The position numbers and the translations under genes are program-made. A model generated the notes under the pieces. The model saw only the letters and a list, made by a program, of their open reading frames with translations. It was not told the origin of the DNA and did no database searches. Shown here piece by piece: positions 2,775 through 57,120 of a DNA stretch of 64,000 nt; position 1 is the first letter of the stretch, and the number at the start of each line of letters is the position of its first letter. Origin of the DNA: an uncultured Eubacteriales bacterium (GTDB lineage Bacteria > Bacillota > Clostridia > TANB77 > UBA1234). The stretch spans positions 167,195 to 231,194 of the forward strand of contig CAYMVI010000001.1 in NCBI GenBank assembly GCA_964394075.1, written 5' to 3'.

Positions 2775-4046
2775 TTGGAAAAATGGTGGGAAAAGGAAGC
2801 AGTCTTCCACGGAAAGATTGCTCTTAAAATAGATAAGAATATTTTAAAGAAAGTTGTATTACCAGATGACATTATTGTTGTTACAGGTAGTAACGGTAAG
2901 ACATCAACAGTTGAAATGATTTGTAACACTTTAGAAGCTAATGGTTATAAAGTTGGCTGTAATAGAGAAGGTTCAAATCAAACTGAAGGTGTTACAACAA
3001 TGATTTTGAACAACTGTAATTTAAAAGGTGAAGTTAAGAAAGATATTTTAGTTATAGAAAGTGACGAAAGATATTTAAGACATACATTAAAACATTTTAG
3101 ACCCAAGTATTTAGTTGTTACAAATTTGTATAGAGATCAAATGACCAGAAATGGTCATTCCGAGTTAATTTATGACATTATTAAAGAAGCAATTACAGAT
3201 GATATTCATTTGATACTAAATGCAGATGATCCTCTTACTTCAATGTATGGTTATAAGAGAGAAAATGTAACTTATTTTGGTATGGATAAAAATAATCTTT
3301 CAGTAATGAAAAATGAAAGCGCATATGATGATGGTGTGTACTGTCCTAATTGTAAAGAACGTTTAGAGTATAGTTATTATCACTACAACCACATTGGTGA
3401 TTTTGAATGTAAAAATTGTGGACACAAGAGAATGAAACCAGAATATGCTGTTACAGATTTAAATTTAAATAACAGCGAAATGGTAATTAATAATAAATAT
3501 AAAATTTCAATGAACTTAAGAAGTGTATATATGGCATACAATATGCTTGCTACATTTGCTGTTACAAGATTAGTTGGATTAAAAGATGACAAGATAGTCG
3601 AATCGTTAAATAATTACATCATGAAAAACGATAGAGTTCAAAAGTTTGAGTTAAATGGAAAGCATGCAATGTTATTAACCTCAAAACATGAAAACTCTAT
3701 TTCATATAATCAATCACTTTTATATATCACTAGAGAAAAAGCACCATGCACTGTTGTTATAATTGTTGATGCTGTTAGTAGAAAATATTTTACAAGTGAA
3801 ACATCTTGGCTTTGGGATATTGATTTTGAATTGTTACAAAATGATTGTGTAAAGAAAGTTATACTTGCCGGAAAGTATGTTCATGATTTAGTTACACGTT
3901 TTGAATATTCGGGAATTGATATGAAAAAAGTTAAAGCTATGGATGATTTAGATGATATGATGGATGAAGTTAAAGAAAATGCAGTTGGACAAATTTATGT
4001 TGTAACTTGTTTTTCAGACAGAATGAAATTCATGAGTAGGAGGTAA
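2775..4046 (+). CDS. murT: lipid II isoglutaminyl synthase subunit MurT (Mur-ligase-like). The 5' end appears frameshifted.
   Basis: It carries the Mur ligase motif VVTGSNGKTST and the MurT zinc-ribbon CPNC...CKNC, and is immediately followed by gatD. A short ORF from ATG 2732 with a good RBS encodes ...MVGKGSSLP and stops at 2825 inside this gene, in the -1 frame. Confidence 0.75.
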   Translation: MEKWWEKEAVFHGKIALKIDKNILKKVVLPDDIIVVTGSNGKTSTVEMICNTLEANGYKVGCNREGSNQTEGVTTMILNNCNLKGEVKKDILVIESDERYLRHTLKHFRPKYLVVTNLYRDQMTRNGHSELIYDIIKEAITDDIHLILNADDPLTSMYGYKRENVTYFGMDKNNLSVMKNESAYDDGVYCPNCKERLEYSYYHYNHIGDFECKNCGHKRMKPEYAVTDLNLNNSEMVINNKYKISMNLRSVYMAYNMLATFAVTRLVGLKDDKIVESLNNYIMKNDRVQKFELNGKHAMLLTSKHENSISYNQSLLYITREKAPCTVVIIVDAVSRKYFTSETSWLWDIDFELLQNDCVKKVILAGKYVHDLVTRFEYSGIDMKKVKAMDDLDDMMDEVKENAVGQIYVVTCFSDRMKFMSRR

Positions 4047-20790: not shown

Positions 20791-20888
20791 GTCCAAACGG
20801 GGACGTCCTCAATTGGACACCAAATAATGCTTAAAATTATTTATTACTTTAGGCAAGGTGTCCAATTGAGGACGTCCCCGTTTGGACA
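20790..20888. repeat. perfect 31-bp inverted repeat pair (GGTCCAAACGGGGACGTCCTCAATTGGACACC), a MITE/REP-like element abutting the engB stop
   Basis: The two arms are at 20790-20821 and 20858-20888 with a 36-nt AT-rich loop. The same unit recurs elsewhere in the window. Confidence 0.85.
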
Positions 20889-25708: not shown

Positions 25709-25829
25709 GAATGACCAAACGGGGACGCCCTCAGACCAAACGGGGACGCCCTCATTTGGACATCTTTTGATAAGGTGTCCAAATGAGGGCGTCCCCGTTT
25801 GGTCTGAGGGCGTCCCCGTTTGGTCATTC
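25709..25829. repeat. 121-bp perfect palindrome built from tandem then inverted copies of the GACCAAACGGGGACGCCCTCA unit
   Basis: It contains four unit copies (two direct, two inverted) between the convergent pyrG and rqcH genes. Its right end supplies the last codon and stop of rqcH. Confidence 0.9.
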
Positions 25830-54749: not shown

Positions 54750-54755
54750 AAGGAA

Positions 54756-54779
54756 AAGCCGTAGTAAAAACTACGGCTT
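54756..54779. terminator. bidirectional terminator
   Basis: AAGCCGTAG taaaaa CTACGGCTT flanked by A and T runs. Confidence 0.7.
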
Positions 54780-54790
54780 TAAAAATTTAA

Positions 54791-55588
54791 TTAATTTTGA
54801 GAAGCTAATTCATATAAGACGAAATATTCCCAACCACGAGGTGAGCCGGTAACAGGATAACTAAAATCGTTGAGTTTATCTTGATAATCATCTCCAAAAT
54901 CTATGTGGTGTTGAATAGGTCTAACTCCGCTAAAACGATCATTTAACCAACTGTTTCTGGCAGCTACTGAAAGGGCACCTACTAAAATCTCTACACCATC
55001 AACGTCGAACCTAAAGGTTGCCGATGGCTTAGAATATGTTGTATAAACTTCACCTGATTCTGGTGTATACGCATTACCATTTTCATCGACCAATTTTGTG
55101 TCTCCATTTACATATAGTTCATTATTATAAATATATGGTGGCCAAATAAACACAGTTCCTGTTTTTGTAACAAAATATGAGCATTCAACACTATTTAATT
55201 TTTGAGTTGAAGTTTTTATTTTTGGCAATTCATAATCTATAACTTTAGGCATTGCGTCGCCGGACAACTGTGTGCAATGCATTTTTTCGGCGTATGCTCT
55301 TGTAAGCCAATTCTTCCCATCTTTGTCTACTAAAGTAGCACCCTTAGCAATGTAGTTATATACTTGAGCATCTGTTCTTTGAACTCCGTTTTTTCCTTCT
55401 ATACCTTTTAAAGTAACTGCTTGTTGGTCTAATAAATTTTGTACTTCGGCAATGTTGTTAGTAAAGTTTGAAAAGTTTGCATTCTCAATTGTGTCCGTAG
55501 AAGAACCAAAAGCGACAGCTGCTAAAATAATAATTACAATAATTGTGATGACTAAAGAAATCATCGAAACACCTAAATTTTTCTTCAT
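54791..55588 (-). CDS. type-IV-pilin-like N-terminus surface protein (paralog A)
   Basis: The N-terminus MKKNLG|VSMISLVITIIVIIILAAVAF aligns position-for-position with the pilin alpha-helix ..IIGILAAIA, but has Ser instead of Glu at +5. It is homologous to the 63055 ORF, sharing ANFSN.TN and IWPPY. Confidence 0.55.
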   Translation of the reverse strand: MKKNLGVSMISLVITIIVIIILAAVAFGSSTDTIENANFSNFTNNIAEVQNLLDQQAVTLKGIEGKNGVQRTDAQVYNYIAKGATLVDKDGKNWLTRAYAEKMHCTQLSGDAMPKVIDYELPKIKTSTQKLNSVECSYFVTKTGTVFIWPPYIYNNELYVNGDTKLVDENGNAYTPESGEVYTTYSKPSATFRFDVDGVEILVGALSVAARNSWLNDRFSGVRPIQHHIDFGDDYQDKLNDFSYPVTGSPRGWEYFVLYELASQN

Positions 55589-55633
55589 AAAAATCGCTCC
55601 TAACTAATAAAAGTAATTTTAGTCAAAAACCAT

Positions 55634-55654
55634 TATATATATATATATATATAT
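55634..55654. repeat. (TA)10 dinucleotide microsatellite forming the spacer of the paralog-A promoter
   Basis: On the minus strand it reads ccTTGAAT(AT)n..TATAATgg. The -35 and -10 hexamers overlap the tract ends, giving a 15-bp spacer, which would be 17 bp with one extra unit. Confidence 0.6.
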
Positions 55655-55734
55655 TCAAGGGATTTTCGATAAATTAAATATTACATTTTTGTAACAAAAA
55701 AGACGAAGATCACATTTCTTCGTCTTTTGAAATT

Positions 55735-57120
55735 TTATTTTCCTTCTACATTTTTCAATGCACTATAACAATAATTATTACTTGGATCCCACAATGTAAA
55801 ATCGTTTATGCCTAAATCATATTGTGCTTGTATTTGTGCTTGTACTTCGGTAGTACCATATGATAAATAATTACCTTTACCAAGCCAGCTTGCTGTGAAG
55901 TCTTGTAGGTAAGGTCTGATTTTTGCTAGATGATAATCTGAATAATTAAGTTCTGATTTTTCTATTACAGTATCACCACTAAAATTATCGCCGCTAATTG
56001 AAACGTTATATGTTTTATTTATGTATTCGTTATAACGTTTTAATGCGTCATTTATAGAATGATAGATTAAACTATATGGAGCAGTGTCAGGTTTTGCTAA
56101 ACCATATTCATTGAAATTATAATGAGATGGATAAACCATTGGACAAATTACATCAACTATACTTGCAATTCTTGAAAAGTCTTGGCCGATATTTTCAAAG
56201 TCACCATTTCGTTTTGTAATTATTCCAAATACATCTGCAGATATTTGTACATCATAAGGTTCTAATTCAACCATAACTTTTTCTAAAAATTCAGCAATTA
56301 TATCTGATTTAGTTTTTGTTCCAAATTCAAATCCATATGCTATTTGACTAACACGTCCTTCAGAAGAAGGGAATCTAATGTAATCAAATTGTATTTCATC
56401 AAATCCTAATTCGGCAGCTTCTTTTGCAAGTGCTATTGGGTAATCCCAAGAAGCTTTATTATATGGGTTCGGCCATTTGTTTCCTGCTGAATCTTGCCAC
56501 ACAGTACCATCAGCTTTTTTGTATGCTATGTCTGAAACTTTTCCGGCATAAGTAGGATCTTTAAAAGTTACGATTCTACCAATTACATATAAATCATTTT
56601 CGTGCAATTCATTTAGAATTGCAGAAATATCGGAAACCATTTTTTGCGATGCTTTTATATCGATTGCGGTTTGGACAGAGGAGTTATATGTTAGATGGCC
56701 AGCTTCATCTTTTATATCTATTACTATTGAATTGTATCCATATTCTTTTAATGAAGAAATCATTTTGCTTCTAAGTCCTGGTGTGCCCATTACCCAACCA
56801 GTTGCATATACAGCTTGTACATTTTCTGGTACAGGCATTTTCTTTTTTATAATTTCAAGTTCTGTATTTTCACCAGAAACATTTTGTTCAGGTTCGATAG
56901 ACGGCGATGAAACAATTGGTTCGATATTTCCGGATTCAATTATGAAATCACCTGAAGTTTTTTCGCCAGAATCAGAAATAATATTTTCAATATTTCCACT
57001 ATTTTGAGTTGTGATATTAGGAGAGGAAACATCGATAGTTTTTAGACTAAACATTCCTACGATTAAACCTATAAAAATAGAGCAGACAATTACCACACTA
57101 AGAAGTGTTTTTGAATTCAT
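55735..57120 (-). CDS. membrane-anchored putative glycoside-hydrolase-like TIM-barrel protein (DUF4015/GHL15-like)
   Basis: VQAVYATGW...IVIDIKDEAGHLTY matches the DUF4015 core. N-terminal transmembrane helix. Confidence 0.45.
   Translation of the reverse strand: MNSKTLLSVVIVCSIFIGLIVGMFSLKTIDVSSPNITTQNSGNIENIISDSGEKTSGDFIIESGNIEPIVSSPSIEPEQNVSGENTELEIIKKKMPVPENVQAVYATGWVMGTPGLRSKMISSLKEYGYNSIVIDIKDEAGHLTYNSSVQTAIDIKASQKMVSDISAILNELHENDLYVIGRIVTFKDPTYAGKVSDIAYKKADGTVWQDSAGNKWPNPYNKASWDYPIALAKEAAELGFDEIQFDYIRFPSSEGRVSQIAYGFEFGTKTKSDIIAEFLEKVMVELEPYDVQISADVFGIITKRNGDFENIGQDFSRIASIVDVICPMVYPSHYNFNEYGLAKPDTAPYSLIYHSINDALKRYNEYINKTYNVSISGDNFSGDTVIEKSELNYSDYHLAKIRPYLQDFTASWLGKGNYLSYGTTEVQAQIQAQYDLGINDFTLWDPSNNYCYSALKNVEGK

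Follow-up and report, generated by a model that had tools for sequence, protein, structure and literature searches.

Most documented cases of phase variation driven by simple repeats come from Gram-negative pathogens with small genomes and from mycoplasmas, and the switches known from Clostridia and the gut microbiome are mostly invertible promoters. In promoters of the sigma-70/sigma-A type, a distance of 17 ± 1 bp between the -35 and -10 hexamers is optimal and one of 15 bp strongly impairs activity; a homopolymer in this spacer acts as a switch at opc of Neisseria meningitidis. The fimbrial genes hifA and hifB of Haemophilus influenzae, whose (TA)n promoter spacer was reportedly described by van Ham et al. 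in 1993, are highly expressed with a 16-bp spacer and less so with one of 18 bp. Their (TA)n tract lies between the -35 and -10 elements of the fimbrial promoter (PMC3899988), and promoter simple sequence repeats (SSRs) similar to the hif spacer are known (PMC11475388). Homopolymer promoter-spacer switches have been described for N. meningitidis porA (poly-G), Bordetella pertussis and Mycoplasma hyorhinis outer-surface proteins (PMC3899988). In Clostridioides difficile, invertible DNA switches act at flagellar, cwpV and cmrRST loci (e.g., bioRxiv 10.1101/690230, PMC3080850). Here we analyse a 64,000-nt stretch from an uncultured Eubacteriales bacterium (contig CAYMVI010000001.1; hereafter the window), in which a TA tract occupies the promoter spacer of a type-IV-pilin-like gene (paralog A; its relative, paralog B, lies at the window end). 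This tract is probably a slippage-driven on/off promoter switch of the pilin-like gene.

Tandem Repeats Finder reports the tract as a period-2 TA array of 10.5 copies with 100% matches, and across it the minus strand reads ccTTGAAT(AT)nATAATgg. It falls within the intergenic region 55589-55735, which extends in its entirety from the start of paralog A to the stop of a co-directional upstream DUF4015 gene. The elements of the promoter are as follows.

55634..55654, no strand assigned: (TA)10.5 microsatellite, the variable element (Tandem Repeats Finder; shuffles; homologous tract of 11 and 8 AT units in contigs L043 and L044)
55653..55658, minus strand: -35 hexamer TTGAAT, its final AT being also the first unit of the tract (sequence; homology to orthologs)
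55638..55652, minus strand: spacer of 15 bp, all TA (counted)
55632..55637, minus strand: -10 hexamer TATAAT, whose first four bases lie within the tract (sequence; homology to orthologs)
55669..55677, minus strand: A/T box TTAATTTAT, 10 nt upstream of the -35 hexamer (matches the ortholog box AATTTAAT)
55680..55695, minus strand: imperfect, operator-like palindrome GTTACAAAAATGTAAT, with which the conserved promoter block begins on its upstream side and where homology between the window and L043 sets in (motif match and orthologs)

An earlier reading of this DNA, made from the sequence only, had described a minus-strand promoter TTGAAT-(AT)n-TATAAT with both hexamers overlapping the ends of the tract and a present spacer of 15 bp; the letters agree with the first statement and a count from 55652 to 55638 with the second. 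Upstream of the hexamers, the order in the window is GTTACAAAAATGTAAT-ATTTAATTTAT-N10-TTGAAT, with GTTACAAAAATGTAAT being the single window match to the pattern GTTACA-N4-TGTAAY. A consensus scan of the intergenic minus strand for sigma-70-like promoters spaced by 16-18 bp found none.

A tract of this length is not expected by chance. In 200 dinucleotide-preserving shuffles, the longest TA run was 9.4 nt on average and 14 nt at most, compared to the 21 nt observed, and dinucleotide repeats of at least 5 units occur just twice in the 64-kb window (32% GC), namely, as the TA tract and as (AC)11 at 62897, each upstream of one member of the paralog pair. A survey of 378 kb, made up of the window and related loci, found dinucleotide SSRs of 6 or more units essentially only in the TA promoter and in an (AC)n module of the same pilin superfamily, described below; the one other case was a (TA)6 in a terminator loop.

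An argument that the tract replaces a real promoter spacer comes from 15 orthologous loci (L001-L006, L008, L010, L018, L026, L028, and L045-L048). Upstream of the pilin-like gene, these carry one or two GTTACA-N4-TGTAAY palindromes, the AATTTAAT box, 10 to 11 nt, and then a -35 hexamer reading TTGAAA, TTGCAT or TTGCAA. The spacer that follows is exactly 17 bp long in all 15, with a sequence that is not conserved, and leads to a -10 hexamer reading TATACT, TATAAT or TACACT. Such a pattern, in which the hexamers and the spacer length are kept while the spacer sequence varies, is the hallmark of a functional sigma-A-type promoter. The promoter block of the window is identical to the promoter part of L008 at 30/34 positions, and the ortholog leader aligns to it far less well. 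MAFFT had placed the window promoter on the ortholog leader, a placement that we rejected given local alignment scores of 16-25 for the promoter as against 8-12 for the leader. The -35 and -10 elements in the window are thus homologs of the conserved pilin promoter in which the 17-bp spacer was replaced by (TA)n, and the promoter assignment, originally made from the hexamers alone, is upheld by homology to the 15 orthologous promoters.

The window promoter shares with these canonical promoters the palindrome, the A/T box, the hexamers, the Shine-Dalgarno (SD) region and the N-terminal coding sequence. It differs in its TA-repeat spacer, theirs being ordinary and fixed at 17 bp, and in what lies downstream of the -10 element. 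That is, the orthologs have a conserved leader of ~170 nt with covarying hairpins, followed by AAGGAGG and ATG, whereas in the window 43 nt separate the -10 hexamer from the ATG and none of the ortholog leader motifs is present. A further difference is location, since the orthologs lie just downstream of pilus ATPase and platform genes and the window gene lies elsewhere.

The ortholog leader deserves mention in its own right. In L008 (~3830-4000), L046 (~1830-2000) and the 13 other loci (alignment A3), it is predicted to form a hairpin with the invariant loop GATATAGTGCGAGTATC and compensatory changes in 7/11 pairs, as well as a long-range GTCTAGAG/CTCTAGAC helix. No Rfam family was found for it, and it may represent an undescribed cis-regulatory RNA of pilin genes.

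If the tract is a switch, alleles that differ by whole repeat units should be found in nature, and such alleles do exist. The protein P0002, which shares 74% amino acid (aa) identity with paralog A, is encoded on two Logan contigs, L043 and L044, from different samples of one project; both carry the same TA promoter block and encode the identical protein. L043 has 11 AT units and a 17-bp spacer, and L044 has 8 units and an 11-bp spacer. Over 1407 nt, the two contigs differ by this 6-bp TA indel and by one single-nucleotide polymorphism, indicating that the tract mutates far faster than its surroundings. Near-identical strains therefore differ by whole units at this sister locus. Together with the 10 units and 15 bp of the window, the natural spacers comprise a permissive length of 17 bp (L043) and nonpermissive lengths of 15 bp (window) and 11 bp (L044). 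The sequence-only reading had also noted that one additional TA unit would yield 17 bp, and the 11-unit allele of L043 is a natural instance of just that.

Several observations weigh against the proposed switch. L043 and L044 represent a sister locus in a different genomic context, not the window's own locus, and the alleles found number three, one of them at the permissive length. All three come from short-read metagenome assemblies, such that their lengths are consensus paths in which stutter is possible. Look-ups with FeoA and SigH retrieved the window species at 99.4-100% identity on ten contigs from eight samples, none of which reaches the tract; same-species contigs that are 99.5-99.7% identical end in an element resembling repetitive extragenic palindromic (REP) sequences past the DUF4015 stop. 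Compared with window positions 55700-55736, contigs L053 (1-26) and L055 (1-53) carry tandem REP-like units AAATGAAGGCGTCCCCGTTTGGTC directly after this stop, which is TGA in both contigs and TAA in the window. The presence of these units there and their absence at the window site mark the junction toward paralog A as strain variable. Exact-protein look-ups with paralog A, P0001, P0003, P0005 and the DUF4015 neighbor returned no record, and patterns for the tract flanks had no match in two JGI metagenome scans and one IMG/VR scan.

We propose the following mechanism. The (TA)n tract would constitute the spacer of a sigma-A-type promoter of a stand-alone type-IV-pilin-like gene, and slipped-strand mispairing during replication would add or remove TA units, moving the distance between the -35 and -10 hexamers in 2-bp steps. 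Among the lengths considered, 11 AT units alone would restore the 17-bp spacing that is otherwise invariant in this promoter family and turn the promoter ON, while other lengths, such as 10 units (15 bp) or 8 units (11 bp), would misalign the hexamers and allow little or no transcription. A population would then be a mixture of pilin-expressing and non-expressing cells. In the lineage with the TA promoter, a structured 5′ leader of ~125 nt has been lost, and stochastic control may have replaced the control exerted by this leader. The window allele is probably OFF or low, one repeat unit away from ON. The position of the transcription start site (TSS), an effect of tract length on expression, and the reversibility and rate of switching are inferences.

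What else could explain such a tract? One alternative holds that the promoter is decaying, damaged by the leader deletion, that the gene is effectively silent or dispensable, and that the tract is a neutral, hypermutable microsatellite whose length drifts without regulatory effect. Two of the three alleles, at 15 and 11 bp, indeed have a nonfunctional spacing, the window gene stands alone, away from pilus assembly genes, and the leader conserved in the 15 orthologs is missing here. Yet the open reading frame (ORF) of paralog A is intact, and over codons 1-191 the comparison with the L043 gene gives a ratio of nonsynonymous to synonymous substitution rates (dN/dS) of 0.12 at a dS of 0.76, on which grounds we rejected paralog A as a pseudogene or silent copy. 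(The C-terminal ~60 codons are highly divergent between the two genes.) The promoter block from GTTACA to the ATG, leaving out the tract, has 4/89 mismatches between the window and L043 compared to a proportion of synonymous differences of 0.48 in the adjacent coding sequence, and is thus ~10 times less diverged than synonymous sites. By these sequence measures, paralog A is under purifying selection and so is its promoter block. Moreover, the tract is pure and uninterrupted in all three alleles, one of which sits at the family-typical 17 bp. The dN/dS value, the conserved promoter block and the pure tract argue against a decaying pseudogene or neutral microsatellite, and we regard this explanation as quite unlikely.

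It is also unlikely, if a shade less so, that the gene is read from another promoter, by a different sigma factor or with an activator bound at GTTACA-N4-TGTAAT, and that the tract does no more than alter DNA flexibility, melting or the geometry of a regulator, with effects that are graded or nil instead of on/off. In favor of this view, the operator-like palindrome upstream is conserved and a regulator probably acts here, AT-rich spacers influence promoter strength, and sigH, a gene for an alternative sigma factor, is found ~2.2 kb away. Against this, the 43 nt between the -10 hexamer and the ATG hold no acceptable hexamer pair, the candidate TTGACT-N11-TATTAG downstream of TATAAT having been rejected on account of its spacing, and the hexamers flanking the tract are homologous to those kept in 15 orthologs. 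Even with a regulator at work, a change in the distance between -35 and -10 would also shift the distance from the operator to -10. As for the length differences being artefacts of sequencing or assembly, such as stutter or misassembly around a tract whose true length is fixed, all assemblies are short-read metagenomic ones, TA repeats tend to stutter and to be thinly covered, and several contigs of the window species break near this region. However, the tract flanks are clean and unique in three independent assemblies. The gap between L043 and L044 amounts to three whole units (6 bp), beyond typical stutter, with 1 other difference in 1407 nt. At 17-23 nt, the tracts are also, by our own estimate, shorter than the k-mers in common assembly use. 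We consider such an artefact highly improbable.

The assignment of paralog A to the type-IV-pilin-like proteins is partly demonstrated, by the signal at its N-terminus, the gene neighborhood in relatives and weak matches of its fold. Its N-terminus, MKKNLG followed by VSMISLVITIIVIIILAAVAF, consists of a short basic leader ending in Gly and then ~20 hydrophobic residues, as in class III signal peptides. It is almost invariant in 83 homologs, all of which come from metagenomes of uncultured gut or rumen Clostridia, and a set of 51 homologs shows no variation at G6 and at most positions from 7 to 27. The +5 residue of the mature protein is Ser (Ala in some homologs) and not the Glu characteristic of pilins. 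The protein has no Pfam or NCBIfam match, including none to Pfam N_methyl (PF07963), for which paralog B and homologs score 11.6-14.7 bits, below the cut-off of 21.2. An AlphaFold model of paralog A (mean confidence score, pLDDT, of 83) shows a helix spanning residues 9-66 and then a domain with beta strands; Foldseek searches of the PDB with this model returned no match. Linkage to pilus assembly genes is seen in relatives. In L046, the ortholog lies directly 3′ of genes for T2SSE (PilB-like) and T2SSF (PilC-like) proteins, and at several other loci what appears to be the same T2SSF C-terminal coding sequence can be read by eye upstream. No pilus assembly genes were found among the window genes scanned. 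That the two pilin-like genes of the window are paralogs, as had been claimed before, is confirmed by the 44% identity of A and B over 170 aa (E = 1e-25). Several features of the wider family are worth recording: the C-terminal third is hypervariable, the paralog A homologs P0061 and P0063 carry a C-terminal pretoxin-HINT domain, and residues 238-307 of paralog B (window ~63766-63975) form a Listeria-Bacteroides repeat (Flg_new).

The gene and its immediate surroundings comprise the following features.

54791..55588, minus strand: paralog A, a 265-aa type-IV-pilin-like protein, the gene under the TA promoter (ORF)
54755..54780, minus strand: terminator of paralog A (11-bp stem, then a T-rich tail)
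55601..55597, minus strand: Shine-Dalgarno AGGAG, a good one (sequence)
55589..55625, minus strand: predicted short 5′ untranslated region (UTR), with the TSS placed at ~55625 (from the position of the -10 hexamer)
55698..55728, minus strand: intrinsic terminator of the DUF4015 gene (12-bp stem, -14 kcal/mol, z = -4.1, UUUUUU)
55735..57120, minus strand: DUF4015 gene, upstream of paralog A (ORF)

The DUF4015 terminator, a strong one by these parameters, would insulate the TA promoter from upstream read-through. According to in silico folding, the predicted 5′ UTR (55589-55631, minus strand) forms a hairpin (-9.7 kcal/mol, z = -3.7) in which the start of the transcript pairs with the SD region, and a single substitution in L043 (U to C) would strengthen one of its pairs. 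The window genes scanned include housekeeping genes (nrdD, fab genes, and sigH), along with genes that we take to be feoAB and glmS from their sequences and the Pfam families listed.

The second dinucleotide repeat of the window belongs to paralog B, whose upstream region is laid out as follows.

62802-62830: good promoter, TTGCAA-17-TAAAAT, upstream of the leader ORF
62859: ATG of an upstream ORF (uORF) of 21 codons in the leader
62897-62918: (AC)11 tract, inside the leader uORF
62959-62991: terminator-like hairpin after the uORF
63055 (ATG) to the window end: paralog B

The (AC)n and TA loci had both been put forward as phase variable. For (AC)n, the hypervariability part of this claim stands, the repeat occurring with conserved flanks and 7-17 units at at least 13 related loci; its location does not fit as neatly, as the tract lies neither in the promoter nor in the pilin ORF of paralog B. 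In the window, L014 (3802-3930) and L034 (3782-3910), (AC)n sits in a short leader ORF upstream of the hairpin. In L014 and L034, with 9 units, the uORF is in the one frame that terminates 3 nt ahead of the hairpin; the other two frames terminate 26 or 34 nt ahead of it, and the window, with 11 AC units, is in the 34-nt state. This arrangement suggests that a leader peptide whose length is set by the repeat may control transcription attenuation of paralog B. To our knowledge, no such combination of repeat-controlled transcription attenuation has been described. In L037 and L040, (AC)n determines the frame in which a long pilin-like ORF begins; both loci are at present out of frame, and a one-unit change in either would open this ORF.

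Further sites of the module were recorded in L011 (3258), L013 (3223), L015 (3262), L019 (1497), L021 (3559), L023 (3073), L027 (3208), L033 (3372), L037 (3965), L039 (3671) and L040 (3977). Its flank reads CTTGAAACCGTTGrGGCTGT... and the encoded peptide M..LETVGAVHTHT... The module adjoins many pilin-family paralogs in several metagenome-assembled genomes (MAGs), with one MAG from Hadza gut samples having at least 7 copies. Tentatively, and with some doubt, this lineage might run a multigene pilin phasome that combines the (TA)n spacer switch with the (AC)n module M..(L/R)(E/V)TVGA(V/L)(HT)n. Under such a scheme, the (TA)n switch would have arisen by spacer replacement and deletion of the undescribed structured leader RNA, and (AC)n would gate pilin translation in some paralogs and the leader-peptide frame in paralog B.

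Another repeated element in the window is a GC-rich palindrome of ~24 bp, (G)TCCAAnnGrGGACGyCCyCnnTTGGA(C), that occurs singly, in tandem or as inverted pairs at gene ends and looks like a REP-like family. Its sites are 20793-20816, 20862-20885, 25715-25759, 25779-25823, 62630-62653, 62766-62789 and 63008-63031, and the pattern gave 16 matches versus 0.03 expected. One copy forms the 3′ end of a hexapeptide-transferase ORF (61977..62672). As inversion sites behind the promoter variation, these palindromes were considered and rejected, for the seven sites are intergenic or at gene ends, REP-like, and none flanks the TA promoter.

With regard to wider significance, our searches of the literature turned up no repeat-spacer switch reported for a pilin of Clostridia. 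The natural 17-, 15- and 11-bp alleles suggest that uncultured gut commensals, too, use contingency loci to vary surface filaments, which are likely targets of phages, host immunity or adhesion trade-offs. At loci of this type, MAG consensus sequences can hide ON/OFF heterogeneity, and the tracts may contribute to assembly breaks. The proposed switch makes a simple prediction: the 11-unit allele alone should be active.

How, then, does this locus compare with the described systems? The invertible switches of C. difficile likewise exert stochastic on/off control over surface structures within the class Clostridia. They operate by site-specific inversion through a recombinase, whereas repeat slippage would act here, on a promoter without flanking inverted repeats. 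The homopolymer spacer switches also depend on a simple repeat, located within the -35/-10 spacer or next to it, by which a surface protein is tuned or switched at the level of transcription. Their mononucleotide tracts change by 1 bp at a time and give graded expression; with the 2-bp steps of a dinucleotide tract, only one length comes near the optimum, which would make for a sharper switch.

The closest parallel is hif, to which the sequence-only reading had likened the architecture of this promoter. As far as the mechanism goes, the likeness stands: as in hif-type phase variation, an SSR fills the spacer (TTGAAT, 15 nt all TA, TATAAT), the TA unit is the same, it occupies the same spacer site overlapping the hexamers, and its length moves in 2-bp steps. 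Both systems also act on a gene for the subunit of a surface filament, and in both the alleles found in nature are set apart by whole repeat units. The comparison fails for bidirectionality and for the type of gene. At hif, a bidirectional overlapping promoter serves two divergent units, while the window promoter is unidirectional, sits behind a terminator and serves a single gene; the upstream gene runs in the same direction and is closed off by that terminator, and in L043 a divergent upstream gene begins more than 130 nt from the tract. Furthermore, hif encodes a chaperone-usher fimbria of a Gram-negative pathogen, in contrast to a type-IV-pilin-like gene of an uncultured Gram-positive anaerobe of the gut Clostridia. 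The two loci share no sequence homology, the permissive length here would be 17 bp, and the window switch evolved from an ancestor with a regulated promoter and leader. The hif-type mechanism is already known; the host and the gene family are new.

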